Positions 17,481-42,345 of a stretch of DNA of 64,000 nucleotides are shown in pieces (position 1 is the first letter of the stretch; each line of letters begins with the position of its first letter). Made by a program: the position numbers and the translations under genes. The notes under the pieces were generated by a model that ran no database searches, was not told where the DNA came from, and saw only the letters and a program-made list of their open reading frames with translations. Source of the stretch: an uncultured Gammaproteobacteria bacterium (GTDB taxonomy: Bacteria > Pseudomonadota > Gammaproteobacteria > JAUZRS01). Location of the stretch: the NCBI GenBank assembly GCA_964615985.1, contig CAZTQX010000001.1:18978-82977 (forward strand), in the 5' to 3' direction.

Positions 17481-18350
17481 TTAGCTAAAGTTGAGGTAAT
17501 AATGGTTGATCTGTTCACCCCAGATTAAGCTGATCCAACCGGCAAAAGCGAGGTAAGGGCCGAATGGAATCGGCACATTACGATCTTGTTTTTTCAGCAG
17601 AATAAGTAAAATACCGACGCTGGCACCCAGTATCGAGGAGAGCATGATAATGCCTGGCAGTGCTTGCCAGCCGAGCCAAGCACCCAACATGGCCAGTAAT
17701 TTAAAATCGCCGTAACCCATGCCCTCCTTGCCGGTTAGCAGTTTAAACACCCAGTAGACCGACCAGAGCGCCAGATAACCTGCGATGGCACCCACCAGCG
17801 CCGTGGCAGTGTCGATGGGCGCAATGCTGCTGAGGCTGAGCAGCAGACCCAACCAGAGCAGGGGTTGGGTGATGCTGTCGGGCAGCAGGGTGTGTTGTAG
17901 GTCAATGACACTGAGAGCAATCAGACTCCAAGTAAAGATCAGGCCGGTAAGGGTGAGCCAACTGGCACCAAAATGAGCGGCAATGGCCATCGAGAGCAGG
18001 GCGGTGAGCAGCTCCACCAATGGATATTGCCAAGAGATGTGGGTTCCACAGTGGCGGCAGCGGCCTTTGAGAAACAGGTAGCTGAACAGCGGAATGTTTT
18101 CGATGGCCTTAATGGGCTTTTTGCAGCTGGGGCAGTGGGAGCGCGGACGACTGAGATTGAAGGTTTTGCTTTCAACAGGTTCTTTATCGGGGTCTAGGTA
18201 CTGCTCGCACTCGCTGCGCCATTGGCGCTGCATCATAATGGGAAGACGGGCAATTACGACGTTTAAAAAACTCCCCACCAGCAGGCTAAAGAGGCCGATG
18301 GCAATGATAAAAGCGGTTGGGTTGTGCAGCAGTGGGTCAAATAAGCCCAT
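17481..18350 (-). CDS. pilD: prepilin leader peptidase / N-methyltransferase
   Basis: 289 aa polytopic membrane protein with the Cys cluster CPSC...CRHC typical of PilD/A24 peptidases. Confidence 0.92.
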   Translation of the reverse strand: MGLFDPLLHNPTAFIIAIGLFSLLVGSFLNVVIARLPIMMQRQWRSECEQYLDPDKEPVESKTFNLSRPRSHCPSCKKPIKAIENIPLFSYLFLKGRCRHCGTHISWQYPLVELLTALLSMAIAAHFGASWLTLTGLIFTWSLIALSVIDLQHTLLPDSITQPLLWLGLLLSLSSIAPIDTATALVGAIAGYLALWSVYWVFKLLTGKEGMGYGDFKLLAMLGAWLGWQALPGIIMLSSILGASVGILLILLKKQDRNVPIPFGPYLAFAGWISLIWGEQINHYYLNFS

Positions 18351-18389
18351 GATAAAGTCTGTTCCGTTGGAAAGTGGGAGTGAGCGGCG

Positions 18390-19610: not shown

Positions 19611-19615
19611 GGCAG

Positions 19616-21331
19616 CTATTCCTTGGTGACTCGGTTGGCTTCTTCAAGGCTGATGTCTCCCATTTTAACCTTGTTAAGTGCTGCTCGACGTAGATCCATT
19701 ACGCCCTCTTGTTTGGCTTGGTCGGCAATTTCAATGGAATTGCCGCCCGCCATAATAATACGTCCCATTTCGTCGCTGATGGGCATCACTTGATAGATGC
19801 CCACTCGTCCTTTGCAGCCGTTGTTGCAGTAGTCACAGCCTGGTGCATTGTAGACTTTAATATTGCGTGCCTCTTTTTCATCGAAGCCTTCTTGAATCAG
19901 TGTTTTGCGTGGTACGTCTTCGATAATTTTGCATTTTGTGCAGAGTTTCCTGGCCAACCTTTGCGAAATAATCAACGACACCGAGGTGGCGATGTTAAAG
20001 GGAGCAACACCCATATTAGCCAGTCGCGAGAGGGTCTGCGGAGCATCGTTGGTGTGCAGCGTTGAGAGTACCAAATGGCCGGTCTGTGCTGCTTTGATGG
20101 CGATGTTTGCGGTCTCAATATCACGAATTTCACCGACCATAATGATATCGGGATCCTGACGCAAAAAGGCACGTAAAGCTTCAGCAAACGTTAGGCCAAC
20201 GCGGGTATTAACATTGACTTGGTTGATGCCTGGCAGATTGATTTCGGCAGGATCTTCGGCGGTGGAGATGTTGCGATCAATGGTATTGAGCATGTTCAGA
20301 CCGGTGTACAGCGAGACGGTTTTGCCGCTGCCGGTGGGGCCTGTGACCAAGATCATGCCGTAGGGTTGTAACAGGGCTTTTTGATAGACTTCTTGCTGCT
20401 CTTTTTCGAAACCGAGGCTCTCGATGCCCAACTTGGTGCTGCTGGGATCGAGAATCCGCATGACGATTTTTTCGCCAAACAGCGTTGGACAGGTGTTGAC
20501 GCGAAAGTCGATGGCGCGATTTTTCGACAGTTTCATCTTGATGCGGCCATCTTGAGGCACTCGTCGTTCGGAGATGTCCATGCGTGACATGACTTTAATC
20601 CGAGAAATGATGCGGGTGGACATCGCTTGGGGTGGGGTGGACATCTCTTGCAAAATGCCGTCAATGCGGTAGCGGATACGGAAGGTATTTTCGTAGGGTT
20701 CGACGTGAATGTCCGATGCGCTTTTATTGATGGCATCGAGCATGACTTTGTTAACAAAACGCACCACGGGGGTGTCGTCAATTTCGGAGCCTGGGTCGTT
20801 GTCGTTTTTTTCATCTTCGTCGGAGGCGATCTCTAAGTTATCGAGATCCGCGTCTAGGATGGTATCCATGCTGGCGGCGTGTTGGCTGCTCAGAAATTGT
20901 TGAATTTTTTTATTGAGTTTGTCTTCTTCCACCAAAATGGGGTCGGTGGAGATGCCAGTATGAAATTTAATCTCATCCAAGGCCGTGAGATTGGTGGGGT
21001 CGGAGATAGCGACAAACAGACGCGGCCCGCGTTTTAACAGCGGCAGGGCGTGGTTGGTTTCGATAAGATCGCCATCGACCAGGGTCGGTGGCAGTGAGTC
21101 CATCTCCATGGAGTCGAGATCCAGTAGGGCAAGGCCAAACTCTTGCGAGGCAGCAATGGCAACGGCGAGGCTGGAGGCGAGACCCTCTTCGACCAAGATG
21201 GTGACAATGGATTTTTTGCTTTTTTGGGCCTTGGCAACCGCTTGGATAATATTCTCTTCATCAACAATACCGTCTTGCACTAAGCGTCGAGGCAGTCCAC
21301 CCAGACTTAAGTTGGTATGTGTTTTCGCCAT
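19616..21331 (-). CDS. pilB: type IV pilus assembly ATPase PilB
   Basis: 571 aa with Walker A GPTGSGKT, a tetracysteine motif CxxC...CxxC, and a GspE N-terminal domain. Confidence 0.95.
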   Translation of the reverse strand: MAKTHTNLSLGGLPRRLVQDGIVDEENIIQAVAKAQKSKKSIVTILVEEGLASSLAVAIAASQEFGLALLDLDSMEMDSLPPTLVDGDLIETNHALPLLKRGPRLFVAISDPTNLTALDEIKFHTGISTDPILVEEDKLNKKIQQFLSSQHAASMDTILDADLDNLEIASDEDEKNDNDPGSEIDDTPVVRFVNKVMLDAINKSASDIHVEPYENTFRIRYRIDGILQEMSTPPQAMSTRIISRIKVMSRMDISERRVPQDGRIKMKLSKNRAIDFRVNTCPTLFGEKIVMRILDPSSTKLGIESLGFEKEQQEVYQKALLQPYGMILVTGPTGSGKTVSLYTGLNMLNTIDRNISTAEDPAEINLPGINQVNVNTRVGLTFAEALRAFLRQDPDIIMVGEIRDIETANIAIKAAQTGHLVLSTLHTNDAPQTLSRLANMGVAPFNIATSVSLIISQRLARKLCTKCKIIEDVPRKTLIQEGFDEKEARNIKVYNAPGCDYCNNGCKGRVGIYQVMPISDEMGRIIMAGGNSIEIADQAKQEGVMDLRRAALNKVKMGDISLEEANRVTKE

Positions 21332-21549: not shown

Positions 21550-22011
21550 TTAGCAGAGATTGATGTCTGCTGTTGCGCAGGAACCGCCTTTCGTCCAAGT
21601 AATGGAAGAGCTGCCAGGAGCCGTATTGGGAGTCAGGCTATAAGTAGTAGCAGCCGTTTGGCCAAAATCACCGGCGGTAGTGGTGGCAGTGATAACCCCT
21701 GCGACAATGGTCAGAGCCGCTAAGGTATTGGTGGTATCCAATGCCATCGGCAGGTTGGCTGGTATGGCTGGAATAGAACCGAGGTTGCCAAGATAACCAG
21801 GTATACATGCGGTTAGTACGCCACCGTTTTCTTGAGCACAAAGTTCCACGCCAAGCTTGTAGGGAGCGATAAGAGAGGTGACGGATTTAAACGCTGCGCG
21901 GTTGGTAAAGTTTTGATACTGAGGAATGGCGATGGCGGCCAAAATTCCGATAATCGCGACCACAATCATCAGTTCGATCAGAGTAAAACCTTGCTGTTTT
22001 TTATTTTGCAT
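21550..22011 (-). CDS. type IVa pilin (second, paralogous pilin)
   Basis: Leader MQNKKQQ followed by [21 protein letters not shown]. Alternative GTG start at 22017. Has a C-terminal Cys pair. Confidence 0.9.
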
Positions 22012-22051
22012 TTTCACGGTGTAGCTCCTAGTTTTAAAGTTGTTTGTTGCG

Positions 22052-22474
22052 TTAACAGAGACCACGATCTCTGCAATTTCCTGAAACTGTCCATGTGACT
22101 GAACTGCCATTGAAAGCTGGGGTTAAGATGTAGTAGGTGTGATCGGTTTGGCCAAAGCTGTCATCAATCGTTGTTACTTCAATTACACCGGCTGTGGTGC
22201 TGAGTTCATTAATCTTGCTTTGATCTTCAATTTTGCCTGGAATTCTTGCCAAGGTGCCAGGGTAGTCGTTACTGCATTGATCAAAGTTTCCTGCATTGTC
22301 TTGAGCACACATCTCGACCGCCATTTTAAACGGAGCCACCAAGGAGATTATCTCCTGAAATTCCGCTCGGTTGGTGAAGTTTTGGTACTGAGGAATCGCA
22401 ATGGCCGCCAAGATGCCAATAATGGCAACGACAATCATTAGTTCGATTAGAGTAAATCCGTTGGATCTCTTCAT
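22052..22474 (-). CDS. pilA: type IVa major pilin PilA
   Basis: Canonical 6-residue leader MKRSNG then [35 protein letters not shown] 6 nt upstream. C-terminal disulfide loop Cys residues present. Confidence 0.92.
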
Positions 22475-22520
22475 AGTCTGTCCCTGTTGGGGCATGCAAC
22501 TCCTTGGGTAGAAGAGTAAT

Positions 22521-22665: not shown

Positions 22666-24027
22666 TCATTCTATCCCCATTTTTTTCAGACGATAACGCA
22701 GTTGGCGATAACTGATGCCCAACGCCTCAGCTGCCGCGCTTTTTTTCCAGCGACTTTTTTCCAGTGCCTCCACCAGTGTCTCGCGCTCTTGCTGATTCAT
22801 AATACGATCTAAGGTCTGATTATTCTCATCGTTAGCGGGGGTTTTTTGGGGCTGACGTGCTGTTGCACTGTCTTCGAGTTGCAGATCTGAGCTGTGGATC
22901 TGATTGCCATCTTGCAGAGCCAATGCCCGCTCCAGAATGTTTTCCAGCTCACGAACATTGCCAGGGAAAGCGTAGTGGCTCAGCTTCAGCAAGGCCGACT
23001 GGCTGAGTTGTAGATGGGCCTCGGGGTAGTGACAAGCGAGGCGTTGCAAAATGGCCTGACACAGCTCATCAAGGTCTTCGGGGCGTTCTCTGAGTGGCGG
23101 TATTTTCAGCTCAATGACATTGAGACGGTAGTAGAGATCTTGGCGAAAATGTCCCTGCTCGACCTCTTCGCTGAGATCCTTGTGGCTGGCACTCAAAATA
23201 CGCACATCAATCGGCTCTTCGTGAGTGGCTCCAACGGGACGAATCTGTTTTTCTTGAATGCTACGCAGCAGTTTGACCTGCATCGGCAGAGGCAGATCGG
23301 CAATCTCATCCAGAAACAGCGTGCCACCCTCAGCGGCTTGAAACAGCCCCTCTTTGTTGGCCACCGCACCACTGAAACTGCCTTTGAGATGCCCAAAAAA
23401 CTCACTCTCCATCAATTCGCTGGGAATGGCACCGCAGTTGATGGCGATAAACGGGTTTTGAGCGCGAGGGCTTTGTTGATGAATTTGACGAGCCGCCAGC
23501 TCTTTACCAGTGCCCGACTCGCCACAGATGTAGACCGGTGCTTGATTGCGCGCTAATTTTTTGATGGTGTGGCGCAGCAGCTGCATCGGTTGTGATTGGC
23601 CGATCAGTGGTCGTGATGCTGTCTGTTTGTTTGGTTTAATGCTGGTTTCTGTTTTGTCGTTCAGCCGCAAGGCGGTGTTGATCAGAGTGCGTAGAACCTT
23701 GAGGTCAACGGGTTTGGAGATAAAATCAAACGCGCCTTTTTTTAACGCTTCGACGGCGGACTCCACATTGCCGTGAGCGGTGATCACCGCCACCGGAATT
23801 TGTGGGTACTGTTGCTGGATCAATTCAACCAATTGCAGACCGTTGCCATCGGGCAGGCGCATGTCGGTCAAACAGAGGTCGAACGGCTGTTGGCTCAGAG
23901 CGGTGCGCGCTTGCTGGAGGTCGATGGCGCTGTGGGTCTCAATGCCCATGCGCCCAAGGGTGATCTCCAACAGTTCGCGAATGTCGGCTTCATCGTCAAC
24001 GATCAAGGCAGTAGCGGTTTGGCTCAT
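22666..24027 (-). CDS. pilR: sigma54-dependent response regulator PilR (REC, AAA+, Fis-type HTH)
   Basis: 453 aa with a receiver domain, GESGTGKE Walker A, a GAFTGA-like loop (FSGA) and a C-terminal HTH. Confidence 0.92.
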   Translation of the reverse strand: MSQTATALIVDDEADIRELLEITLGRMGIETHSAIDLQQARTALSQQPFDLCLTDMRLPDGNGLQLVELIQQQYPQIPVAVITAHGNVESAVEALKKGAFDFISKPVDLKVLRTLINTALRLNDKTETSIKPNKQTASRPLIGQSQPMQLLRHTIKKLARNQAPVYICGESGTGKELAARQIHQQSPRAQNPFIAINCGAIPSELMESEFFGHLKGSFSGAVANKEGLFQAAEGGTLFLDEIADLPLPMQVKLLRSIQEKQIRPVGATHEEPIDVRILSASHKDLSEEVEQGHFRQDLYYRLNVIELKIPPLRERPEDLDELCQAILQRLACHYPEAHLQLSQSALLKLSHYAFPGNVRELENILERALALQDGNQIHSSDLQLEDSATARQPQKTPANDENNQTLDRIMNQQERETLVEALEKSRWKKSAAAEALGISYRQLRYRLKKMGIE

Positions 24028-25622
24028 GGGGTTGGGGTATCCAAAGTGTGGTTAAAAATAATACGAAAACAGCTGCCGTGATCGCTGGGGAGGTAACGTA
24101 AAGAGGCATTGTTAAAACGGCACAGTTCGCGTGCCATAAAAAGCCCTAAGCCGGTGCCGGTGTTGCTGGAGGTGTAAAAAGGCTCGAACAGTTTGTCCAG
24201 ATGCTGCTGGGGAATGCCGCTGCCGTTGTCGCTTAAATCCAGATAGGGGTGGCCGGTGGAGGGGGTTTGGCCACAGTGGATGCTGATCTGAATGTTCTCT
24301 TTTTGGCCGTGTTTGATGCTGTTACAGCAGAGGTTCCATAAAATCTGATTCAGGTGCAAAAATTCCATGTAAATGGGTTGGGCTTCGTTGCCAAAGTGCA
24401 GTTGCAGATTTTCTGCTGGCCACTTTTGCTGTTGGCAAAAATCAGCAGAAAATTGCAACAGGCTCTGTTGCAGGTCGATGGCGTGGCCGCTGAATTTTTG
24501 CAGTCGTGAGATCTGCATGACATCTTCGATTAGACGATTGATGCGTTGACCGTGATCGAGAATGATCTCCAACAAACGCCCATCTTCAACGCTGATGTGG
24601 GGTGATTCCGCCAACAGTTGTGAGGCGTGGCTGATGGCACCCAGAGGATTACGAATTTCATGGGCGATGTTGGCCGTCAGGTGGCCAAGGGAAGCGAGTT
24701 TGAGCTGCTGCACTTGTTCTTGAATGGCGGAGGTGTCTTGCAGCGAGATCAACCAGCCTTGGTCTTCCAAAGGAGTGAAGTGCGGTTGCAGTTCCGCTTG
24801 GCTGTTGGGTTCTTTGATTGAGCAGGGCAGCTGTTTTTTAGCCTGATGCCATTGATTCAGTGAGTAGTGCAAACGAGGCGCTTGTTGTTTGAGTGATGAT
24901 TTGTGCTGGAGGTTGGAGAGTTTGAGCAGTTCGCGAGCGCTTCGGTTGGCGAGGCGAATTCGCTGGCGGCTGTCCACCACCAAAATGGCTGCCTCCATTT
25001 TTTCGATGATCAGTTCATTCAACTGCGCCATATTTTTCAGGTCAATGCGACTCTGGGTGGCTTGCGCTTCACTCTCGCGGCTGCGCCGTGCCAGCAGCAT
25101 GGCCAGTAGGGCGGTGGCAAATAGGGTTGCGCCGAGAATGCCCGCTTGTGGGTAGTGGGTACTGCTCTGGCCGAGGCTGAGGTGGCTGTAGAGCTGTTCG
25201 GCCAAAATGGCCAAGCTGGCCAGTGCGGCAAACAGCAGTGCCAGACGTTCGGACATCAACACCCCAAAACCAGCGATGCTGATGATCAGCAGCATTCCCA
25301 AACCGCTGTTGATGCCACCGCTGCTGTGCATCAGCAGTAAAATAAAGCCAATGTCGATGCAGGAGCGGGGGATCAATTGCCTCTCAAAAGCCGGTTGTTG
25401 CAGACGTGCCAAGAGAATAAAAGCCAAACTGCTGAGCAAATAGAGAGTGATGATCAGCATAAACAACAGAGGTTGAGTGGAACCTAAAAAGGGCTTTCCC
25501 AGCTCGGAGAGGTAGGTGGCGATGAGGGTGATGCTGAGCAGCAGACGGTAGCCATCCAGCAGCAGCAGCAGCCGCCAGTTGGAGAGTTGGGTTTTTTGGG
25601 TTGGCGGAGGAGCGTTCAGCAT
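24024..25622 (-). CDS. pilS: sensor histidine kinase PilS
   Basis: 532 aa with six N-terminal TM helices, the H-box HEIRNPL and an HATPase domain. Overlaps pilR by 4 nt. Confidence 0.9.
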   Translation of the reverse strand: MLNAPPPTQKTQLSNWRLLLLLDGYRLLLSITLIATYLSELGKPFLGSTQPLLFMLIITLYLLSSLAFILLARLQQPAFERQLIPRSCIDIGFILLLMHSSGGINSGLGMLLIISIAGFGVLMSERLALLFAALASLAILAEQLYSHLSLGQSSTHYPQAGILGATLFATALLAMLLARRSRESEAQATQSRIDLKNMAQLNELIIEKMEAAILVVDSRQRIRLANRSARELLKLSNLQHKSSLKQQAPRLHYSLNQWHQAKKQLPCSIKEPNSQAELQPHFTPLEDQGWLISLQDTSAIQEQVQQLKLASLGHLTANIAHEIRNPLGAISHASQLLAESPHISVEDGRLLEIILDHGQRINRLIEDVMQISRLQKFSGHAIDLQQSLLQFSADFCQQQKWPAENLQLHFGNEAQPIYMEFLHLNQILWNLCCNSIKHGQKENIQISIHCGQTPSTGHPYLDLSDNGSGIPQQHLDKLFEPFYTSSNTGTGLGLFMARELCRFNNASLRYLPSDHGSCFRIIFNHTLDTPTP

Positions 25623-29918: not shown

Positions 29919-30040
29919 TTCGTTAACCCCATTTTCAGTGGGGCGGAATTCTCTCATGTTGGCTTTGATGCTGACAAGCGTAGTGGCCTGTATTTTGCCG
30001 CTTCTCTTTCACACTCATCCAATTTAGGCGGGAAATCAGC

Positions 30041-31957
30041 ATGGCGTTAAAAAATATGGCTCGACATCAGCAGAGCGGTGGCGGTGAAAGTGGTGGTACG
30101 GATCGGTGGGTGAAATGCAACGCTGAAGATCAGCGTCGCCATGCGCGGACGATGGCCAAACAGCAGCAGGCGGCGGAGCGGATTGCCGCCGCCTCGACGC
30201 AGTTGGCCAGCGGCGTGACACAGGCGGCCAGCGCCCGTGATCAGCTTTCTGTAGCGGTGAATGAAATTTCAGCGGGTGCGGAACAGGCCAGCGGCGCTTG
30301 TGAGCAGAGCCTGTTTTCGATCACTAAAATCACCACGCAAATCAAGCAACAATCTGACTTAGCGGAAACCTCTTCGAGCAAAGCGGTGGCACTGCAAGTC
30401 TTGGTGGATCGTACCTCTGAGGCGATCAGTAACTTGGTGGATAACGTCAAAGTTGCTGCTGATCGTCAAGCGAGTTCGGTCAAAGTGATGGCGGAGGTGG
30501 AGCAGCAGGCGGCCAATATCAATGAATCGGTCAAACAGGTGATGCGGATTGCCGATCAAACCAACCTGCTGGCACTGAATGCCGCCATCGAAGCCGGGCG
30601 CGCTGGCAAACACGGCAAAGGTTTTGCGGTGGTGGCGGATACGGTGCGTACCTTGGCCGAGACCGCTGAAAAAAACGCCCTTGGCATCGCCAAACAGATT
30701 GAGGTGATTCAAGAGTTGGCGCGCAGCGTCGGGGATTCTGTCACCAAAGCGAGTAAAACCGCCTTGGATGAGGTGGAAAAAGGCCAAGTGATTACCCAGC
30801 AGTTGCAGAGTATCAAGGACGATGTTAACGAGGTTTATCAAGGTTCTCAACGGTTGGAGAGCGGTGCTGAAGATATTAACCGTTCGATCTTAGTGGTACA
30901 AAAAGGCGCGGATGTGATTGCCACCGCTGCCCAAGATCAAGCCAGTGCCGCCGAAGAGGTGGTGGCTTCACTGGATCAACAGGAGCAAGCACTGCGTGAA
31001 TCGGAGCAAGCGTCACAAGGGTTAGAGGTACTCTCAGATGAGTTGAAAAACAGTACCGACATCGCCAAAAGCGCCGAGGAGGTGGCGGCCAGCGCCGAAG
31101 AACTCTCTTCGTCCATCGAAGAAATCAATCGTTCAGCGACTCAAATTAGTTCCGCCATTGAGCAGGTCAGTCGCAGTGCCGAGCAGAGTGCCACCGCCAT
31201 TGAGCAAGCGGTCTCTGGGATTGCCGAAGTTGAAAAAGGCGTGGATCTGGCCACCGAAATCAGTGGCTCTGCATTGCAGCGTTGTAAAAACATTCGTGAG
31301 TTATTGAGTGTTAATAAAACCAGCGTTGATGAAATGATCACAGGCATTGGCGATGCGATGGAGTCAGGTCGTGCCAATCTGAAAAACATCGAAGAGGTGG
31401 AGCAGTTGGCGCGTTTGATTGACAAAGTCACCGATGCCATTGCCACCGTCTCGATTAAAACCGGCATGTTGGCGGTCAATGGAGCGGTGGAAGCGGCGCG
31501 AGCCGGTGAATACGGCAAAGGCTTTGCGGTGGTGTCGTCGGATATCCAAAGTTTGGCTGACGATGCGGCAGAAAATGTCGATCAGATTAAAGACCAAGTG
31601 AAAGCCATTCAGGATCAGGCTTCCAAGGTGCGGATTGATTTGACCGAGGTGGCCAACAGTGCCTTGCAAGAGGTTGAACGCACCAAACAGACCACCACCG
31701 ATCTGCTGGCCATCGAAGAGGATATGAGTGTGATTCAGGATGGCAGTGAGCAACTTGGTCAGGTTGCGACTGAAATATCGGCGGCCAGCAACGAGATCAA
31801 ACGCGGCATGGAGCAGATCGCTGCTGCTGCCGAGCAAGCCAGCAGCAATGCCGAAGAAGCATCCATCGCAGCACGACAACAGTCTCAAGGGGCTGAGGAG
31901 TTGGCGGTGGCCACCGAGGAGATCGCCTCCATTGCGGATGAATTGCAGAGTGCGTAA
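30041..31957 (+). CDS. cytoplasmic methyl-accepting chemotaxis protein with two tandem signalling (MA) domains (DosM-like)
   Basis: 638 aa with no TM segment. Two separate receptor-tip motifs are present, [38 protein letters not shown] and [33 protein letters not shown]. Confidence 0.85.
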
Positions 31958-31987: not shown

Positions 31988-33529
31988 ATGACGACGGCAT
32001 TAGCAATTGACAACGATCTGCAACAGCAGCCCGACGAGGATGAAGAGCGTGCAGAGGAGCAGAGTCAATACGTCACCTTTCAAGTGGAGGATGAGGTGTT
32101 TGGTTTCCCGATGGAGTCGGTGCTGGAGATCATCCGTCTGCCCACCACCGTCGAGGTGCCGCTGACCCCCAAAGCACTGCTGGGGCTGGCCAATTTGCGC
32201 GGCAGCGTCTTACCGATTTTGGATCTGCGCCAAGTGCTGCACCTGAACAAAACAACCTACAACGATGCCAGCCGCGTGATCGTCACCGATGTCGGCTCGC
32301 CGGTGGGGCTGGTGGTGGACAAGGTCGCACGGGTGATGCAGGTGGAGCCAGAGTGCATCGACCGCAATGAACAGGTGCAGAACAACATCGGCGCGGAGCT
32401 GCTGGAGGGCGTGATCAAAGGTGGCAGCGGCGAGGCGCTGATTCAACTGCTGAACGTGGAGCAGTTGATCAAAGAGGAGTTCAGCGTGGTGCTGGCGGTG
32501 GCGCAGTCGGAGAGTGCCGAGCGTGAGGTGGGGCTGCTGATGCAGCACGAGGTGGAAGACGACACCGATCAACTGGTCAGTTTTACCCTAGAGGATCAAG
32601 AGTACGCCTTCAACTTATTGGAGGTGGAAGAGATTGTGCGCTTGCCGGAGCAGATCTCCAGTGTGCCGCGCAGCGACGCGCATATTTTGGGCTTGATGGA
32701 CCTGCGTGGGCGATTGCTGCCGTTGGTGAGTCTGCGCTGTCTGCTGGAGTTTGAAGAGGCGCAGAGCATTGACGAAGAGAGCCGTATTTTGGTCGTGAGC
32801 GTGAAAAATGCGCAGGGCAAAAAAGAGTCGGTGGGGCTGGTGGTGGACGATGTGAAGGAGGTTTTGCGGGTGGAAAAAGCGCTGCAAAACACCATGCCGC
32901 CGTTGCTGAACCGCAACGAAGAGAGTGCCGAAATCAGCTCCATCTGTCGTCTGGAAGGGGGTCAACGCTTGGTCTCGGTATTGACTGCTGAATCGCTTTT
33001 CGCGTTGCCCAGCGTGCAGGCGGCGATTCAGACAAAAGAGAGCGAAGCGGAGGCAGAGAGTGAGGTGAACGAGATGAAAGAGGGTGATGACGAAACAGCG
33101 CAACTGGTGGTGTTTTTGTTGGGGCAGCAAGAGTACGGCGTGAGCATTGATGACATTCAGGAGATTACCCGAGTGCCAGAGACGTTGGATAAGGTGCCGA
33201 AAACAGCGGAGTCCATTGAGGGCATGGTCAATCTGCGCGGCACGGTGCTGCCGGTGTTGGACATGCGCAGCCGTTTTGATATGCAGAAGATGGCGCGCAA
33301 CGACCGGCAGCGGATCATTGTGTTTAATCTCAACGGTACGCGCACCGGTTTTATTGTCGATTCGGTGGCGGAGGTGCTGCGTTTACCACGGGATCAGATC
33401 CAAGTGGCACCGCAACTCTCGGACGATCAAGCACGGATTATGGGACGGGTGATCAACCTGAAAAAAGAGCAGCGCATGATTCAAGTGTTGGCGACCGATG
33501 AATTGTTAGCAGAAGAAGTTGATGCGTAG
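31988..33529 (+). CDS. scaffold protein with three tandem CheW domains
   Basis: 513 aa. The CheW-like block (...LGL.NLRG..LPI.DLR...) occurs three times, at roughly residues 30-170, 190-330 and 370-510. Confidence 0.85.
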   Translation: MTTALAIDNDLQQQPDEDEERAEEQSQYVTFQVEDEVFGFPMESVLEIIRLPTTVEVPLTPKALLGLANLRGSVLPILDLRQVLHLNKTTYNDASRVIVTDVGSPVGLVVDKVARVMQVEPECIDRNEQVQNNIGAELLEGVIKGGSGEALIQLLNVEQLIKEEFSVVLAVAQSESAEREVGLLMQHEVEDDTDQLVSFTLEDQEYAFNLLEVEEIVRLPEQISSVPRSDAHILGLMDLRGRLLPLVSLRCLLEFEEAQSIDEESRILVVSVKNAQGKKESVGLVVDDVKEVLRVEKALQNTMPPLLNRNEESAEISSICRLEGGQRLVSVLTAESLFALPSVQAAIQTKESEAEAESEVNEMKEGDDETAQLVVFLLGQQEYGVSIDDIQEITRVPETLDKVPKTAESIEGMVNLRGTVLPVLDMRSRFDMQKMARNDRQRIIVFNLNGTRTGFIVDSVAEVLRLPRDQIQVAPQLSDDQARIMGRVINLKKEQRMIQVLATDELLAEEVDA

Positions 33530-33591: not shown

Positions 33592-34668
33592 ATGCGGAAG
33601 GTTTTGGTTGTTGATGACTCAGCATTGATGCGAAAACAGCTGAGTGACATTTTGATGCAGGGCGGTTACGAGGTACAGACCGCTCGTAACGGTGAGGAGG
33701 GGCTGAACAAGATCGCCTCGTTTGATCCGATGGTGGTGACGCTGGATCTGAACATGCCGGTGATGGACGGCATGACCTGTTTGAGTTTGATTATGCAGAA
33801 ATTTCCACGACCGGTGGTGATGGTCTCCTCGCTGACCGAAAAGGGCGCGTTGGCGACCTTTGAGGCCTTGGAGTTGGGGGCGATGGATTATGTCGCCAAA
33901 CCTGGTGGCACGGTTTCGGTCAACATTCGTGAGGTGGCCGAAGATCTGTTGGCCAAGGTCAATGCCGCTGCCTCAGCGCGGATCAGACCCCGTCGAAAAA
34001 TCGCTGTCAAACCAAGGGCGGTGACAAAGAAAAAACCGGTCAACCTTCAGTGTTCGGAGGGGGTGGTGATCATCGGGGTCTCAACCGGTGGGCCACGCAC
34101 TTTGGAAGGGGTGATTGCCGAGCTACCGCAGACGTTCCCCTTGCCGATTGTGGTGGTACAGCACATGCCCGCCAGTTTTACCGGTCTGTTTGCCGAGCGC
34201 TTGAATAAGTTATCGGCAGTGACGGTAATGGAGCTGGATAAGCCGACTTTTTTGGAGGCGGGCACGGTGTTGGTCGCCAAGGGCAATGCCGATGTGAAAT
34301 TGATCCGCCGCAGCGGTCGTTTGATGGCCTGTCTGACTCCCGAGTCAGGGAAGTTTCTTTGGCATCCCAGCGTGGAGCGGTTGGCAAAATCGGTGCAGCA
34401 GGTCTGTGATCCTGAGCGAGTAATTGCGGTGCAGTTGACCGGCATGGGCAGCGACGGCGCACAGACGATGGCAGAGCTGCATCAACAGGGAGCACGCACC
34501 ATCGCCGAGTCGGAGCAGACGGCGGTGGTTTATGGGATGCCGCGTGAATTGGTGGAGCGGGGGGGCGCTGAGAAAATCCTGCCCTGTGACGAGATCGCTG
34601 CGCAGTTGGTGCGCTGGACAAACGAGATGGCCAAAATGACTCAAGCGCGTCAGTTGGCGCACGCTTAG
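33592..34668 (+). CDS. cheB: chemotaxis methylesterase CheB (REC plus methylesterase)
   Basis: MRKVLVVDDSALMRKQL receiver followed by a C-terminal CheB esterase domain (GVSTGGP, GMP). Confidence 0.92.
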   Translation: MRKVLVVDDSALMRKQLSDILMQGGYEVQTARNGEEGLNKIASFDPMVVTLDLNMPVMDGMTCLSLIMQKFPRPVVMVSSLTEKGALATFEALELGAMDYVAKPGGTVSVNIREVAEDLLAKVNAAASARIRPRRKIAVKPRAVTKKKPVNLQCSEGVVIIGVSTGGPRTLEGVIAELPQTFPLPIVVVQHMPASFTGLFAERLNKLSAVTVMELDKPTFLEAGTVLVAKGNADVKLIRRSGRLMACLTPESGKFLWHPSVERLAKSVQQVCDPERVIAVQLTGMGSDGAQTMAELHQQGARTIAESEQTAVVYGMPRELVERGGAEKILPCDEIAAQLVRWTNEMAKMTQARQLAHA

Positions 34669-34677
34669 GAGGATTTA

Positions 34678-35295
34678 ATGGGTTTTAAAAAAGCAGTTAT
34701 TGAAGATGAGTTGGATACCGTGCTGCTGGAGCGTGATTACGTCACCTTGTTGGCGGAGTTGCAGAGCGAGTTGGTGGCCGAGCGCCGCGATGCGGTGCGG
34801 GAATTGGCAGATTATCCGCAGTCGGTGGTGGCGCTGCTGAATGTTTTGGATGAGGAGCCAGATCATCTGGTGCGCGAGGCGTTGCTGATGAGCTTGCAGC
34901 AGATCGGCGGCGAGACGGTGGTCTCGGGTCTGATTAACTTGCTGCGTTCCGAGGATGCGGTGCTGAGAAACGGTGCCATCGAAGTGTTGCAGAGTATGCC
35001 CGAAGGGGTGGCGCTGCACATGTTGGAGCTGCTGAACGATCAAGATTCTGATGTGCGTATTTTTGCCATCGACATTTTGCAGCAGTTGGCGCATCCGCAA
35101 GCACCGGAGTGGTTGCTGTCGGTGCTCAAAGATGAGACTCACATCAATGTCGTGACCACCGCTGTGGATCGGCTGGCGGAGGTGGGGCGACCGGAGATGG
35201 TGCCGGAGTTGGAGGCGATCAAAGCGCGTTTTCCTGATGAACCTTATTTGGCGTTTGCGGTGGATCTTGCCAGCCGCCGCATTGAGAAGGTTTGA
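34678..35295 (+). CDS. HEAT/PBS-lyase-type repeat protein
   Basis: 205 aa of 4-5 HEAT-like repeats (VRxxAxxxL...) sitting between cheB and cheR. Confidence 0.75.
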   Translation: MGFKKAVIEDELDTVLLERDYVTLLAELQSELVAERRDAVRELADYPQSVVALLNVLDEEPDHLVREALLMSLQQIGGETVVSGLINLLRSEDAVLRNGAIEVLQSMPEGVALHMLELLNDQDSDVRIFAIDILQQLAHPQAPEWLLSVLKDETHINVVTTAVDRLAEVGRPEMVPELEAIKARFPDEPYLAFAVDLASRRIEKV

Positions 35296-36158
35296 TTATG
35301 TTGGCCTCTCCTGTGGCACCTTCGCAGAGCTGCATCACCGATGTGGAGTTTGAGCGTTTTCGAGATTTTTTCTATCGTAAAACCGGGATTAAATTTGAGG
35401 GCAGCAAACGTTATTTTGTCGATAAACGTCTGCTGGAGCGGATGCAGCAGACGGGGCACAGCAGTTTTCGCAGCTATTTTACCTTTATGCGTTTTCAAGC
35501 CACGCGGGATGAGCTGCAAGAGCTGATCAACAGCATGACGGTCAATGAGACCTATTTCTTTCGTGAGGAGTATCAATTCAAGTGCATGGCGGAGGAGCTG
35601 CTGAACGAGGTGGTGCGCAACAAAGCCAAGGGTGAGGGGATTCGCATCTGGTCGATCCCTTCTAGCAGTGGCGAAGAGCCGTACTCCATCGCTCTCTATC
35701 TGTTGGAGCATTGGCCTTTGCTGAATAAAATTGATGTGGAGATCTGTTCCTCGGACATCGACAGCAAGATGTTGCAGAACTGTCGCAAGGGTATCTACAG
35801 CCAGCGGTCGGTGAAGCAGTTGCCCAAGGCATTGCTAAAACGCTACTTCAAAGAGCTGCCAGGCGAGCGATTTCAGATTGACCGCGAATTGCGGGAGTCG
35901 ATTCAGTTCACGCAGGTGAACCTCAGTGATCGGGCGCAAGCGCGGCGTTACAGAAACTTTGATCTGATTTTTTGCCGTAACTTATTGATCTACTTCGATG
36001 AAGCCTCACGCCGTCAGGCGGCGGAGCTGTTTTACGATGCGCTGAACCCTGGGGGATATATTTTTCTGGGGCATTCGGAGTCCATGAGTCGGATCTCGTC
36101 GCTGTTTTCGGTGCGTAAATTTTCTAAAGCGCTGGCCTACCAGAAACCGCTTCGATAG
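35292..36158 (+). CDS. cheR: chemotaxis receptor methyltransferase CheR
   Basis: 288 aa SAM-dependent MTase with CheR N- and C-domains (IWSIPSSSGEEPYSIA, FCRNLLIYFD). Confidence 0.92.
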   Translation: MIMLASPVAPSQSCITDVEFERFRDFFYRKTGIKFEGSKRYFVDKRLLERMQQTGHSSFRSYFTFMRFQATRDELQELINSMTVNETYFFREEYQFKCMAEELLNEVVRNKAKGEGIRIWSIPSSSGEEPYSIALYLLEHWPLLNKIDVEICSSDIDSKMLQNCRKGIYSQRSVKQLPKALLKRYFKELPGERFQIDRELRESIQFTQVNLSDRAQARRYRNFDLIFCRNLLIYFDEASRRQAAELFYDALNPGGYIFLGHSESMSRISSLFSVRKFSKALAYQKPLR

Positions 36159-36166
36159 GAGTTGAA

Positions 36167-36541
36167 TTGAGTATGAAAAAAATTCTAATTGTGGACGATG
36201 CGTTAACAGTTCGTCTTTATCACCGTCAGTTGATGGAGGGTTTGGGCTTTGAAGTGGGTGAGGCAGAGAACGGCATCGAGGCGTTGGAAAAGGGTTTGAG
36301 CGAGCCGTTTGATCTCTTTTTGGTGGATGTGAACATGCCGAAAATGGACGGTTATCGACTGGTGGAAGAGATGCGCCAAGATCCGAGTTTGGCCGCTGTG
36401 CCGGTGATTATGATCAGCACCGAGGAGTCAGAGCAGGATCGCGAGAAAGCCTATCTGAGCGGGGCTAATTTTTATGTGGTGAAACCGGCGGATGTGTCGG
36501 AGTTGCAGACCTACGCTACGTTGCTGGCCGGAGGAGTCTAG
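36167..36541 (+). CDS. cheY: single-domain response regulator CheY
   Basis: 124 aa receiver with KKILIVDD, D57-equivalent LFLVDVNMP and K109-equivalent VVKP. Confidence 0.9.
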   Translation: MSMKKILIVDDALTVRLYHRQLMEGLGFEVGEAENGIEALEKGLSEPFDLFLVDVNMPKMDGYRLVEEMRQDPSLAAVPVIMISTEESEQDREKAYLSGANFYVVKPADVSELQTYATLLAGGV

Positions 36542-36543
36542 TT

Positions 36544-39171
36544 ATGGATCCTATATTGGCCTATTTTCTATCGGAATCACGAGAGAATCTGGAGAGTGCA
36601 GGCCGCTGTTTTTTGGAGCTGGAGCAGACTCCTGACGGCAGCGAGTTATTGGATGATCTGTTTCGTGCCATTCACACCATGAAAGGCTCTTCGGGGCTGT
36701 TTGATATTCCGCCGTTTACCAAAACGGTGCATGCCGCTGAGGATCTGTTGGATCAGGTGCGCAGCGGCGAGGTGATCTTGAGCGCGGAACACATCGACTT
36801 GCTGTTGGAGGTGATGGATCAGATCTCACTCTGGTTGGATGAGCTGGAGTCGCAGGGCTGTTTACCCAGCAATGCGCTGGATGCTGGCGAAGGCTTGAGT
36901 GCCGAGTTACGCGCCATCTACCGTTCAGAGTTAGAGCAAGAGTTGCCTGTGGCAGAGGTGACTCCGACTGCGGTTTCTCAAGAGGCCCTTTCAGAAGCGC
37001 CAACATGGTTGCAGCGGGTGGATGACGGCGAGCGTATGGTGCTGTTTGAGATGCTGCAAACACCTGATAAAGAGTTGACGGCGATTGAGTATCGACCCGC
37101 TGCGGGCTGTTTTTTCAGTGGCGATGATCCGTTACACGTCATGCGTAATCTGCCCGATCTCTGCTGGTTGGCGGTGACTTCTGAGAATGAGTGGCCTGTA
37201 GCAGAAGAGAGGGATCTTTATCAGTGTAATCTGCGTTTTTACGCTCTGAGCTGGGCGAGCAAAACGGAGTTGCAGCACTGTTTTCGTTATCAGATTGAGC
37301 GGGTGACGTTGACATCGTTACAGTCTTCGCAGTTGGTGTTTGCTGAGGGTGTTTGGGGTGACGAGGAGCCGTTTGAGCTGTTTTTACAGCAGGTTCCTGA
37401 ATGGGTGGTGGGGCAAGATTGGTCGCGGTTGGCGGTCTTGATTAAGCCGCTGCTGGAGCTGAGCGGCGCTGAGTTACAGCAGACCTCGGTGCTGCGTTGG
37501 CTGCGCCTGTTGTTGCAGCACGACTGCCAAGATGCAGAATTGTTCCGCTCTCTGTTGGAGGTGATGACCGAGGGCATCTTGCTCTGGCCAGAGCAAGATG
37601 AGGCGGTTGCTGTGGCGGTTTCGACAGAGCAGCGCCAAGCGGCACAGCAGGCGTTGCAGACACAGCGGCAGATTTTGAGTATGCCTTGTGGCGAGGGTGC
37701 GATGCAGGGACGCATCGCCTCGGTCTCGATGGTGATGAGCAACATGATGCAGTTGCTGGGAATGTCGGTGGAGCCGTTGTTGGCGGCACGAGATGCCGCA
37801 AGGCAGAGCGATTGTTTAGATCCGCTGTTGCAGTTTTTGCACGGGTTGGATTTTGTTGCGGTGGCCGAGCCAGTTGCAGAATCTAAGCCACGGCAGTCCG
37901 CTTTGGCACCCTTGTCGCTGTTGCCGCCTGCGGTTGAGCGGCGTAAGTCAGAGCGACGGCTGGACAGTCGTCGTCAAGAGCTTGAAATCCCAGCGATAAA
38001 GACCCTGAAGGTGGATCAACAGCGCATCGACAGTCTGATGGATCTGGTGGGTGAGCTGGTGGTGGCGAAAAATGCGCTGCCTTTTTTGGCTAAACGCGCC
38101 GAAGAGCATTTTGGTGTGCGCCAACTGGCCAAGGAGATCAAAAGTCAATACACAGTGATCAATCGCCTTTCGGAAGAGCTGCAAGGGGCGATGATGCAGA
38201 TCCGTATGGTGCCGATCTCCACCGTTTTTCAGCGTTTTCCGCGTTTGGTGCGGGATCTGTCGCGCAAGCTGGATAAACAGGTGGAGCTGAAATTGGAGGG
38301 TGAGGAGACCGAAGCGGATAAAAACGTGGTGGAAAACTTGGCCGATCCGCTGATTCACTTGGTGAGAAACAGCTTGGATCACGGTTTGGAGAGTGTTGAA
38401 GAGCGCCTCAAGGCGGGTAAACCGGCCAACGGCACCATTACTCTACGCGCCATTGGTCAGGATGATCAGGTGGTGATTGAGATTTGCGATGATGGTCGTG
38501 GCATCGATCCTGGAAAAATCAAACACAAAGCCTATCAAAAGGGTCTGTTGGATGAGCAGCGGCTTGACAGCATCAGCGATCATGAGGCATTGCAGTTTAT
38601 TTTTGCCGCTGGTCTTACCACTGCTGAGACGGTTTCTGATCTGTCGGGGCGCGGGGTGGGGATGGATGTGGTGCGCTCGGTGATTCAGGCGGCGGGTGGC
38701 ACGGTGGAGGTGAGCAGCGAATTGGGGCAAGGCAGCACGGTGCGTTTAAGCCTGCCGCTGTCGATGGCGGTCAGTCGCGTGATGATGATTGAGGTGGCGG
38801 AGCAGAGTTACGGCATTTCCATGGAAAACATCATTGAGACGGTACGCATTCCTCGTGCGGCGGTGCAGCGCATCAAGCAGAGCGAGGCGTTGGTGCTGCG
38901 TGAACGCTTGATTCCGCTGTTTTCCTTGCGGATGTTGCTGGGGCTAGCGCCGATGCAGCAGCAGCCAGAAGAGATTGCGGTGTTGGTGATGATGTTGGGC
39001 AAGGAGGAGGTGGCGTTGGTGATTGATGAGTTTCACGAAGGGATTGATATTATTCAAAAACCGTTGGAGGGGGTAATGGCCAATTATCCGTTCTATTCGG
39101 GCGCGACCTTGCTGGGGGATGGGCGGGTGTTGTTGGTGTTGAATACTCCGGAGTTGTTGGCATGTCGATAA
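36544..39171 (+). CDS. cheA: chemotaxis histidine kinase CheA (Hpt, dimerisation, HATPase, CheW-like)
   Basis: 875 aa with Hpt AIHTMKGSSGLFDI, the G-boxes DDGRGID and GRGVGMDVV, and a C-terminal CheW-like domain. A long ~450 aa insert lies between Hpt and the dimerisation domain. Confidence 0.92.
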   Translation: MDPILAYFLSESRENLESAGRCFLELEQTPDGSELLDDLFRAIHTMKGSSGLFDIPPFTKTVHAAEDLLDQVRSGEVILSAEHIDLLLEVMDQISLWLDELESQGCLPSNALDAGEGLSAELRAIYRSELEQELPVAEVTPTAVSQEALSEAPTWLQRVDDGERMVLFEMLQTPDKELTAIEYRPAAGCFFSGDDPLHVMRNLPDLCWLAVTSENEWPVAEERDLYQCNLRFYALSWASKTELQHCFRYQIERVTLTSLQSSQLVFAEGVWGDEEPFELFLQQVPEWVVGQDWSRLAVLIKPLLELSGAELQQTSVLRWLRLLLQHDCQDAELFRSLLEVMTEGILLWPEQDEAVAVAVSTEQRQAAQQALQTQRQILSMPCGEGAMQGRIASVSMVMSNMMQLLGMSVEPLLAARDAARQSDCLDPLLQFLHGLDFVAVAEPVAESKPRQSALAPLSLLPPAVERRKSERRLDSRRQELEIPAIKTLKVDQQRIDSLMDLVGELVVAKNALPFLAKRAEEHFGVRQLAKEIKSQYTVINRLSEELQGAMMQIRMVPISTVFQRFPRLVRDLSRKLDKQVELKLEGEETEADKNVVENLADPLIHLVRNSLDHGLESVEERLKAGKPANGTITLRAIGQDDQVVIEICDDGRGIDPGKIKHKAYQKGLLDEQRLDSISDHEALQFIFAAGLTTAETVSDLSGRGVGMDVVRSVIQAAGGTVEVSSELGQGSTVRLSLPLSMAVSRVMMIEVAEQSYGISMENIIETVRIPRAAVQRIKQSEALVLRERLIPLFSLRMLLGLAPMQQQPEEIAVLVMMLGKEEVALVIDEFHEGIDIIQKPLEGVMANYPFYSGATLLGDGRVLLVLNTPELLACR

Positions 39172-39401
39172 GTTACAAAAAAACCGTGGCCAAGTTGAGT
39201 GATTTTTGCACCATCGAAGAGGCAGAGCCGTTGTGGGAGTGGCTGTTGGCCAACCCCAACGGCAAGCTGAATCTCAAAACCTTGCAGCATCCGCACAGCG
39301 CGGTGTTGCAGGTGATGATGGCCAATCGGATTTCGGTCTCGGTCTGGCCTGACGATGCTCAGATGACTTTTTGGTTGCAGGCGGCGCTGCGGGATGGCTG
39401 A
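39162..39401 (+). CDS. small conserved-position hypothetical protein (79 aa)
   Basis: Overlaps the cheA end by 10 nt and the ParA-like start by 8 nt, which suggests translational coupling. I recognise no motif; a STAS-like fold is speculative. Confidence 0.45.
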   Translation: MSISYKKTVAKLSDFCTIEEAEPLWEWLLANPNGKLNLKTLQHPHSAVLQVMMANRISVSVWPDDAQMTFWLQAALRDG

Positions 39402-40173
39402 GTGGCAACAGCCGTTGACGCTGGCGATCAGCAATCGTAAAGGCGGCTCGGGTAAAACCACCACGGCGGTGAACTTGGCGGCTGAGTGGGGGCGGCAGGG
39501 GCATCGTGTGCTGTTGATTGATCTGGACAGCCAAGGTCATGCCGCCATCGGTGTGGGCTGTCGAGCGGCGCGGCGTTCGGAGGAGCATGTGCATCAACTG
39601 CTGCATCGACCGGAGTTGGCTTTGATGGACTTGGTGCAGTTAACGCCGATTCGTAACGTCTGCTTGGCTCCGGCCAACACTGATTTTTGTGCGCAAGAGC
39701 TGCCGGTGTTGATCTTAAAGCAGGCGTTGCAGAGCGAGGCGGTGGCGGTGGCCTTTGATCGGGTGGTGTTGGATACCCCGCCGACGATGGATTCGTTGTT
39801 GATCAGTGCGTTGGTGGCGGCGCATTCGGTGTTGGTGCCGTTTGTGCCGCACCATTTATCTGCGGTGGGCGTGCGCCAACTGGCGAAGCTGTTTTATAAG
39901 GTGGCGACGCTGCACAATTCTGACTTGAGGTTGTTGGGTCTGCTGCCGATCATGATGGATCGGAAGTTGAAATTGCAGCAGCGGGTGATGGCGGATTTGG
40001 GGCAGCAGTTCGGACGTGAACGAATCTTGCGAGGCATTCGCAGCAACATCAAATTGGCTGAGGCTTTCGAAGCAGGTGAGCCGATTTTTTCCTACGCTCC
40101 GCGCAGTTCAGGGGCGATGGATTATCAGCTAATGGCTGAGGAGTTGGAGCTTTTTTTTAATCGTAAAGAGTGA
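39394..40173 (+). CDS. ParA/MinD-family P-loop ATPase (chemosensory-array partitioning candidate, ParC/PpfA-like)
   Basis: Deviant Walker A ISNRKGGSGKTTTAVNLAA, 259 aa, embedded in the che operon. Confidence 0.85.
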   Translation: MAEWQQPLTLAISNRKGGSGKTTTAVNLAAEWGRQGHRVLLIDLDSQGHAAIGVGCRAARRSEEHVHQLLHRPELALMDLVQLTPIRNVCLAPANTDFCAQELPVLILKQALQSEAVAVAFDRVVLDTPPTMDSLLISALVAAHSVLVPFVPHHLSAVGVRQLAKLFYKVATLHNSDLRLLGLLPIMMDRKLKLQQRVMADLGQQFGRERILRGIRSNIKLAEAFEAGEPIFSYAPRSSGAMDYQLMAEELELFFNRKE

Positions 40174-40176
40174 GGT

Positions 40177-40551
40177 GTGATGATGAAAAAAATCATGTTG
40201 GTGGATGATTCTATGACCCTGTTGATGAGTATGCAGGGCGTTTTGAAACGTGCGGGTTTTGAGGTGGCCACCGCCAGCAGCGGTCATCAGGCGCTGCGAG
40301 ATATGGGGGCGTTTGCTCCGGATATGGTGATCACCGATCTGAATATGCCGGGGATGGATGGCATTGAGTTTATTAGGGAGACGAAAAAATTGGCGGCCAT
40401 GCGTTTTAAACCGATGTTGATGTTGACCACCGAGTCGCAGCAGGGCAAACGCGATGAGGCCAAGCGGGCGGGGGCGATGGGCTGGTTGGTGAAACCGGTG
40501 GCTCCAGAGCAGTTGACTCAGGTGGTGCGGCAGGTGCTGCCAGGAGCGTGA
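40177..40551 (+). CDS. cheY: single-domain response regulator (CheY-like)
   Basis: 124 aa receiver with MKKIMLVDDS, VITDLNMPGMDG and LVKP. Confidence 0.88.
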   Translation: MMMKKIMLVDDSMTLLMSMQGVLKRAGFEVATASSGHQALRDMGAFAPDMVITDLNMPGMDGIEFIRETKKLAAMRFKPMLMLTTESQQGKRDEAKRAGAMGWLVKPVAPEQLTQVVRQVLPGA

Positions 40552-40575
40552 GGCGGTGATTTTTATGAAGAATTT

Positions 40576-40584
40576 TGTTTCCCC
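40576..40584 (+). repeat. C9 homopolymeric tract in the promoter/5' region of the terminal MCP gene
   Basis: ...gttt CCCCCCCCC gagtaaaagtgag... lies 52-60 nt upstream of the ATG at 40636. Confidence 0.9.
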
Positions 40585-40635
40585 CCCCCGAGTAAAAGTG
40601 AGTTTAATTCTTTTGAATGTCAACTGGAAAATAAG

Positions 40636-42345
40636 ATGAGTTCGATTACAGCCTCTCCGATACGCCATCTCATCGTTGTTATTACGGTTGGTTTTGTGGC
40701 GGTTTTTCTGTTGGTGTGGCTGTTATCTGCACCCTTATTTTTATTGTTGCTGGATTTTGATCTCCTCTATCAGCAATCATTGTTGGCGGCGGTCAGCGCC
40801 AGCATGGTCTTCTGGGTTCTTTTTTCATTTGAGTTGAAAACATCGCGGCACAGACAGGTGATCAATGCGAACCTGCATCGGCGGCAACTTTCGACTCAAA
40901 CGAAAAGCGTCTGTCAAAAAAGTGAAATGGGTTCTGCTTTGTTGTTAAGTCATCTGAACCGCTGTCAACAGCAGGTGGCGGACTTTCACAGCGAGATGCA
41001 GCAGCCGTTGTTGGAGCTGTTGGGTGAGTTAAACAGCCGCCAACAGCAGCAACGGCTGTTGGCGTTGCAAGGCGATTGTGAGCAGCGTATCGAGACACTG
41101 CGCGAGACGTTGGAGCAGGATTCTGAGGCGATGTTGCTGGCGCTGGCTGATGATGAGGTGGTTTTGTCAACGGAGCTGTTGCTGCAACAGAGTCGCACGG
41201 TGGAGAAAATCAGTGGGTTTGCGTTGCAGGGTGCGCTGGCCAGTCAGAATGCTTTGCAGTTGTGGGTTCGTTTGACCCTACCGGATGCGGAGTTGGCGCG
41301 GGAAAGTGACGTGAGTCAGCAGGTGGAAGCGATTCGAGAACAGGGTTTGGAGTACGCTCTGGATGTGGTGGAGCAGATGTTGTTGACGTACAAACAGGTG
41401 GAGGAGTTTCATCATATTCTGGATTCGCAATTGGATGGCGTTGAGCAGTTGACCGAAGAGGCATCGATGGATCTGATGCAGAACATTCAGCAGATTGAGT
41501 CGGCGGCTGAGGATTCAATGCATCAGGTGCGTAAAGCGATTACAGACTCTGCCAGCTTGAGTCAGTGCGGTCAGAGCCGTGTCAGTTCCATTCAGAACAG
41601 CATTGATGATCTGCGCGCTTATGTGGATGAGCGTAAAAGTGACAATATCAATCACTCACAGCAGATTGAGCAGGTCTTACAGGAGGTTGGTAAGTTGAGC
41701 GGTTTGGCTGAGATGGTGAAAAACATCGCCTTTCAGACCAATATTTTGGCGCTTAATGCATCAATTGAAGCGGCACGAGCTGGGCAAGCGGGCAAAGGGT
41801 TTTCGGTGGTGGCCGGTGAGGTACGCCGTTTATCGGAGCAGTCAGAAGAGGCCGCCAATCACATCGGCGAGGGGATTGAAAAAGCGATTGGTTCGGCGCA
41901 TCAACAGATGGATTATCTGTTGGATGAGGAACGTATGGCCAATGAAAATCGGCGTTTAACGGCTTTTGTGACAGATTTGAGTCAGATGGCGGGTATGTAC
42001 GCGGAGTTAGAGAACTTGAATCAGACACTCTTTGATCAGACTTCAAGCAATGTGGAGAAAATTACCAGCTTGACCGTGGAGACTTTCGCGCGGATTCAAT
42101 TTCAGGATATCACGCGCCAACGGTTGGAACAGATCAAGACAGCCCATGAGATGATTGATCGCCATATTATGGCGTTACCGGCGGCGATTTTGGAAAAGAG
42201 TGCGTTTTACGCTCTGGACGGTTTGGAGCTGGATGCGCTTTATGAGGGCTACTACATGGAAGATCAGCGCCAAATTCATCAGCAAGCCACCGGCATGGCT
42301 TGCCCAACCCCGCAGCCAGAGCTGCCTAAGATTGAGCTGTTTTAA
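40636..42345 (+). CDS. transmembrane methyl-accepting chemotaxis protein
   Basis: 569 aa with two N-terminal TM helices and the tip motif [38 protein letters not shown]. Confidence 0.88.

Follow-up and report, generated by a model that had tools for sequence, protein, structure and literature searches.

The 638-aa protein encoded at 30041..31957 (+) is, by homology and gene order, an ordinary DosM orthologue, and its gene is the first of a complete F9-class chemosensory operon. It lies in a 64,000-nucleotide stretch of DNA from an uncultured gammaproteobacterium, referred to below as the window. By analogy with Vibrio cholerae, we consider it likely (probability roughly 85%) that this protein, in its F9 operon context, forms a rod with a signalling tip at each end that ties two baseplates into a membrane-free sandwich array. 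The sandwich-array step is taken from cryo-tomography of the orthologous V. cholerae system and not from the window.

Two receptor hairpins in one soluble chain

The open reading frame begins with ATG and encodes 638 amino acids, and the identical protein is present on an independently assembled Logan contig. The features of the receptor that are used throughout this analysis are as follows.

30041..31957 (+): dosM orthologue encoding a soluble receptor (638 aa) with its two signalling domains in tandem (ORF, MCPsignal matches, homology)
30476..30895 (+): MCPsignal match 1, residues 146-285 (N-terminal half scanned alone: 97.8 bits, E 8.5e-28)
30536..30673 (+): hairpin tip 1, residues 166-211, turn G189/K190 (35 of 46 positions invariant in 38 homologues)
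31052..31060 (+): central junction S338-T339-D340 between the hairpins (internal AF2 helix break)
31379..31837 (+): MCPsignal match 2, residues 447-599 (C-terminal half scanned alone: 86.0 bits, E 3.5e-24)
31436..31573 (+): hairpin tip 2, residues 466-511, turn G489/E490 (25 of 46 positions invariant in 38 homologues)

Against Pfam MCPsignal (PF00015), the full 638-aa protein scores 168.5 bits (E 1.6e-49) in three stretches. When the halves are scanned separately, both lie far above the curated Pfam cutoff of 34.6 bits (97.8 and 86.0 bits), yielding the two hits that had been predicted from the letters of the sequence. The hairpins in their full extent occupy approximately residues 40-337 and 341-638, and an alignment of the two halves of the protein covers 291 residues at 29% identity, interrupted by a single gap of 3 residues (E 2e-48). 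The protein is composed of two full-length MCP hairpins of ~300 residues joined head to tail, and in this it departs from the canonical single-domain soluble MCP, which has one hairpin per chain. The two hairpin-tip motifs that the sequence-only reading had recognised are both present (GKGFAVV at residues 192 and 492), although the spacing of ~280 residues given for them has to be corrected to 300.

That the protein lacks a transmembrane segment, as was also proposed from the letters of the sequence, is borne out by a maximum of only 1.08 in a 19-residue Kyte-Doolittle window. Searches of Pfam and NCBIfam revealed no further domain in the 638-aa protein, and specifically no sensor domain. NCBIfam holds no DosM-specific model, and its MCP matches to the protein fall far under their cutoffs. 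Only ~39 N-terminal residues lie outside the hairpins, of which residues 1-19 are modelled by AF2 with pLDDT below 50.

The AF2 model, built on the homologue alignment, is all helical with a mean pLDDT of 89. Its helices span residues 20-187, 189-337 and 341-637, interrupted only at residue 188 (tip 1) and residues 338-340, and with a dip in pLDDT at residues 481-500 (tip 2). Among solved structures, the best sequence match to the protein is the cytoplasmic domain of a Thermotoga maritima receptor (2ch7), chain A of which (2ch7_A) superposes on one hairpin of the model with a TM score of 0.86 and 2.6 Å (298 columns, of 309 residues). However, 2ch7 comes from a membrane receptor and comprises just one hairpin, whereas the 638-aa protein carries two hairpins in one chain, an arrangement that was found in none of the solved structures. 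Alignments of the full-length model by Foldseek gave very large rmsd values and are not decisive on the overall shape. Each hairpin arm comprises ~150 residues, corresponding to ~43 heptads per hairpin. The V. cholerae DosM, VC1403 (WP_001185438.1), is classed 44H (PMC9321776 S1 Table), with which arms of ~150 residues are compatible in length.

Membership in the DosM family and the F9 gene cluster

The signature of the F9 chemosensory class is the combination of DosM, which carries two tandem signalling domains, and CheW3, which carries three CheW domains (PMC7534058, PMC9321776). In V. cholerae, this pair consists of VC1403 (DosM) and VC1402 (triple CheW) (PMC7534058). Among DosM homologues, 98% are soluble and without a sensory domain, and the full F9 cluster occurs in ~2% of complete genomes (PMC9321776). 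In the window, dosM is the first gene of a co-directional, tightly packed che cluster whose remaining genes are listed here.

31988..33529 (+): cheW3, 513 aa, three CheW domains (Pfam CheW 298.8 bits, three stretches)
33592..34668 (+): cheB, receiver domain plus methylesterase (Pfam CheB_methylest, Response_reg)
34678..35295 (+): HEAT-repeat protein, 205 aa (Pfam HEAT_2, 73.2 bits)
35292..36158 (+): cheR methyltransferase (Pfam CheR, CheR_N)
36167..36541 (+): cheY-type single-domain response regulator (Pfam Response_reg, 93.1 bits)
36544..39171 (+): cheA histidine kinase, 875 aa (Pfam Hpt, H-kinase_dim, HATPase_c, CheW)
39162..39401 (+): conserved 79-aa ORF (gene call on Logan contig; homologous ORFs at the same position)
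39394..40173 (+): ParA/MinD-family ATPase (Pfam AAA_31, CbiA, ParA, MipZ; NCBIfam ParA_partition under cutoff)
40177..40551 (+): second cheY-type response regulator (Pfam Response_reg, 91.7 bits)
40636..42345 (+): membrane-anchored MCP, 569 aa, with one signalling domain, at the end of the cluster (MCPsignal 92 bits, residues 339-458)

F9 gene orders have been tabulated for 72 species (PMC9321776 S6 Table), including V. cholerae ([DosMW3B.RYA.YM]) and Salinimonas lutimaris ([DosMW3B.RYA..YM]). The order in the window (dosM, cheW3, cheB, the HEAT gene, cheR, cheY, cheA, the 79-aa ORF, the ParA-like gene, cheY and the MCP gene) equals the Salinimonas string gene for gene, as established with the retrieved Salinimonas locus. 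The locus of S. lutimaris DPSR-4 shares with the window both the small ORF and the ParA-like ATPase, and it likewise lies near dcw, lpxC and secA genes. The two loci differ in genus, in flanking genes and in the length of the terminal MCP (428 aa in Salinimonas versus 569 aa in the window). Cluster I of V. cholerae is near-identical, with dosM followed by the triple CheW VC1402, CheB, an unnamed gene, CheR, CheY, CheA, CheY and an MCP, and VC1403 has the same tandem MCP domains without a transmembrane segment or sensor. After cheA and before the second cheY, the window has two genes (the 79-aa ORF and the ParA-like gene) but the V. cholerae order string has one.

Homology to catalogued DosM proteins extends over the full length of the chain. 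The protein listed as DosM of S. lutimaris DPSR-4 (WP_137166147.1; PMC9321776 S6 Table), retrieved here as P0016, is 53% identical to the 638-aa protein at 100% coverage (E 7.7e-173). The protein listed as DosM of Thermoanaerobacter wiegelii (WP_014063478.1; PMC9321776 S6 Table), retrieved as P0127, is 45% identical (E 1e-129) and collinear over residues 26-637. Other relatives include a protein from a Gammaproteobacteria MAG (76% identity) and one from Glaciecola (58%). Together with the synteny shared with Salinimonas, these identities hint that the source organism is probably related to Alteromonadaceae. The protein search yielded thousands of matches, the best 120 of which are all 634-682 aa in length, and hundreds of homologues across phyla retain both domains and the same length. 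The protein in the window thus presents two tandem MCP domains, solubility, no sensor, an adjacent CheW3, the F9 gene order and full-length homology, and the link to V. cholerae VC1403 runs through the catalogued homologues and the gene order.

The resemblance to DosM-type receptors that had been noticed from the letters of the sequence therefore stands, carried by the adjacent triple CheW, the F9 gene order and the 53% and 45% full-length identities. Its description as a rare double-MA architecture applies only in relation to all MCPs: an exhaustive search of representatives gave 311 clusters at E<=1e-30, compared with 207,110 at E<=1e-3, but the architecture is well catalogued. The unusualness of the protein was overrated, since it is a routine orthologue in a described family and not a new architecture. 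A 2016 study reportedly already described the double-tipped architecture, the CheW3 partner, the gene order and the role in sandwich arrays. These features were also surveyed across 2,781 genomes in 2022. The window adds one more F9 cluster, in which a further representative of a known family occupies its usual setting, and as a discovery the dosM locus matters little. The function of the F9 system is still called elusive in reviews up to 2025 (PMC11940527). The dosM locus alone makes the physiological output of F9 no more testable.

Several genes of the cluster merit separate comment. The HEAT gene between cheB and cheR is also present in the F9 loci of Salinimonas and Glaciecola, and corresponds to the unnamed '.' gene of the published F9 orders (VC1400, 'hypothetical', in V. 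cholerae). CheA carries a long insert of ~390 residues between its Hpt and dimerisation domains. The 79-aa ORF shares 10 nt with the end of cheA and 8 nt with the start of the ParA-like gene, and counterparts conserved in both sequence and location occur in the F9 clusters of Salinimonas (87 aa; locus L003, 19082-19345) and Glaciecola (79 aa; locus L004, 19286-19525). As it gave no match to Pfam or NCBIfam, its product may be a small protein of F9 systems that has so far escaped description. The ParA-like gene is present in the Salinimonas locus and absent from that of Glaciecola. In Rhodobacter sphaeroides, the ParA-like ATPase PpfA segregates a cytoplasmic array, and by analogy with PpfA the ATPase encoded in the window might position or segregate such an array.

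The terminal MCP has two N-terminal hydrophobic segments (residues ~12-30 and ~49-67). Upstream of its ORF, at ~40565-40636, the window differs from the otherwise identical Logan contig L002 by a 1-base indel near 40580, in a run of C. On L002 the MCP gene begins 25 codons earlier; in the window this reading frame is disrupted, and the start of the ORF falls at 40636.

Conservation and the proposed rod and array

Conservation was assessed in an alignment of 38 homologues that are 49-76% identical and come from gamma-, beta- and alpha-proteobacteria as well as a Geoalkalibacter species. In this alignment, each tip has a signature of its own that is conserved separately. Tip 1 is marked by K190 and H191, the latter invariant, and tip 2 by AG-E-F/Y-GKGF-V/A-VV, with E490 invariant and F or Y at position 491. 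By this measure, strong purifying selection acts on each of the kinase-control tips. Conservation peaks in five places, namely at the two tips, at residues 31-45, at the midpoint (residues 331-360) and in the last 23 residues, and the junction and both termini match the tips in this respect. At the junction itself, no homologue departs from S338, and conservation of D340 reaches at least 90%. The flank from K343 to R364 is highly conserved, and the invariant residues of the midpoint are K343, S344, E346, V348, A349, E353, E354, L355, E361 and R364.

Insertions and deletions in the 38-homologue alignment are confined to about the first 23-24 residues. Of all retrieved proteins with two recognisable tips (n=202), 185 have them exactly 300 residues apart, including relatives with as little as ~30% identity. 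A fixed spacing combined with an indel-free body is the behaviour expected of a strut of fixed length. These family-wide features (tips 300 residues apart, a lack of indels, a separate signature for each tip and conservation at the junction) may aid the modelling of F9 arrays. Four DosM relatives of ~745 aa (P0192, P0193, P0201 and P0223) have 402-403 residues between their tips instead of 300. The ~102 extra residues in these proteins probably constitute a domain inserted centrally rather than a longer rod, because the outer arms are not correspondingly longer.

In V. cholerae, the F9 proteins assemble into a double-layered array that is 35 nm high and lies entirely in the cytoplasm, and for which DosM is essential (PMC7534058). 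DosM is described there as a rod in extended form, both ends of which carry a signalling domain; it reaches across the two CheA/CheW layers, inserts into both baseplates and is present in every second trimer of dimers (PMC7534058). In the arrangement that we propose for the window, two DosM chains would pair to form a long four-helix rod with one tip at each end. Each tip would enter trimers of dimers and bind the CheW3/CheA lattice, such that two hexagonal baseplates, facing each other, would be held together by the rod as a membrane-free, double-layered cytoplasmic array. Because DosM is without a sensor, signals would enter via other receptors that co-assemble with it. Adaptation of the array would be carried out by CheR and CheB, and its output would be carried by the two CheY proteins.

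The MCP of the cluster is membrane-anchored, like the 24H receptor VC1394, which has been suggested to join possibly a different array in V. cholerae (PMC7534058). For both of these reasons, the true partner receptors of DosM may be encoded outside the cluster. Membrane-free, double-layered arrays between two CheA/CheW baseplates have also been reported in R. sphaeroides and Methanoregula (PMC7534058). The sandwiched baseplates of those arrays can be likened to the ones proposed here. To our knowledge, the soluble receptors of R. sphaeroides (TlpT and TlpC) and of Methanoregula have a single domain, and no double-tipped receptor is known from either.

An extended rod would measure ~44 nm from tip to tip (300 residues x 0.148 nm), longer than the 35 nm given for the height of the V. 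cholerae array. The gap may stem from the way in which the height is measured, from bending of the rod or from a VC1403 of lesser length, but the discrepancy also lends something to a different geometry. The chain could make a U-turn at S338-D340 that places the hairpins side by side as a single-chain four-helix bundle with both tips at one end. One tip could then serve trimer contacts and the other CheW/CheA, and the protein would be an ordinary soluble receptor in a single-layer array. The AF2 model has its 3-residue helix break exactly at the midpoint of the chain, the two tips have distinct and separately conserved signatures, equal arm lengths would be needed in this form too, and the large full-length Foldseek rmsd values leave the shape of the model unsettled. 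However, a fold-back in a monomer AF2 run would be weak evidence, as such runs would tend to bury dimer interfaces within the chain, and tomography of V. cholerae revealed an extended rod across both baseplates in every other trimer of dimers (PMC7534058). The folded-back form would also leave the conserved N-terminal residues 28-47 and the C-terminus without an obvious partner. Only in the extended form do the conserved termini meet the conserved junction, and on this and the published tomography we regard the U-turn as improbable. We find it scarcely credible that the double domain arose from mis-assembly or from a recent tandem duplication with a non-functional second copy, even though the two halves are plainly paralogues. 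The occurrence of the same protein on an independent contig, together with hundreds of homologues from different phyla that keep both domains and the length, excludes an assembly artefact. An identity of no more than 29% between the halves indicates that the duplication is ancient. A non-functional second copy is refuted by the conservation data, with 25 of the 46 positions of tip 2 invariant; the second motif is therefore not the degenerate remnant that the sequence-only reading had allowed for.

The extended, double-tipped rod might also do more than hold two baseplates together. In the 38-homologue alignment, E and Q interchange at positions 82, 88, 89, 305, 306, 381, 389 and 606, and E353 and E354 are invariant within a consensus methylation motif. 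These conserved E/Q pairs in both halves and the invariant E353/E354 make methylation of DosM a candidate, and suggest that DosM itself may be methylated, with the CheR and CheB of the operon acting on it. On this basis, DosM could be an active signalling element and not a passive strut, one that senses or transmits a cue via its coiled coil and methylation and couples the kinases of both baseplates. The interchange is of the CheR/CheB type and occurs in both halves, cheR and cheB lie within the operon, and the junction is highly conserved. We nevertheless hold an active role to be rather doubtful: the protein has no sensor domain, methylation of DosM is not reported in the literature examined, and the motifs are short and easily matched in a coiled coil rich in Ala, Glu and Ser. 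The fixed 300-residue spacing, the conserved junction and the E/Q sites in both halves are likewise the grounds for a reading, which we consider unlikely, of DosM as a mechanical coupler, tunable by methylation, that would pass the signalling state of one baseplate to the opposite one.

Upstream region and chromosomal surroundings

The gene upstream of dosM is folD, on the opposite strand, with a gap of 83 bp between the two. A motif resembling a sigma-54-type -24/-12 element (TGGCCTGTATTTTGC, 29984-29998 (+), 42 nt upstream of the dosM start) was considered and dropped. The sigma-54 pattern has 3 matches in the window versus 5.9 expected, and is thus not enriched, and no GG-N10-GC site was found upstream of dosM in Salinimonas or Glaciecola. 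A sigma-70 scan of the 83-bp folD-dosM gap gave no plus-strand promoter, and an Rfam scan of the whole window gave no match.

The remainder of the window is ordinary chromosome, with dcw genes, lpxC, secA, argJ, pil genes, nadE and hemF upstream and psp, rnf, nth and metG downstream. Two tandem type IV pilin genes (N_methyl and Pilin domains) at 21550-22495 (-) sit between pilB/C/D (17481-21331) and pilS/pilR (22666-25622). Adjoining the rnf operon is a pair of convergent genes, at 56470-59688 (+) and 59713-62994 (-), that encode proteins of ~1,080 aa with the same set of Pfam domains, comprising an AAA/NPHP3-type NTPase, TPR repeats and BTAD, as in STAND-like regulators.
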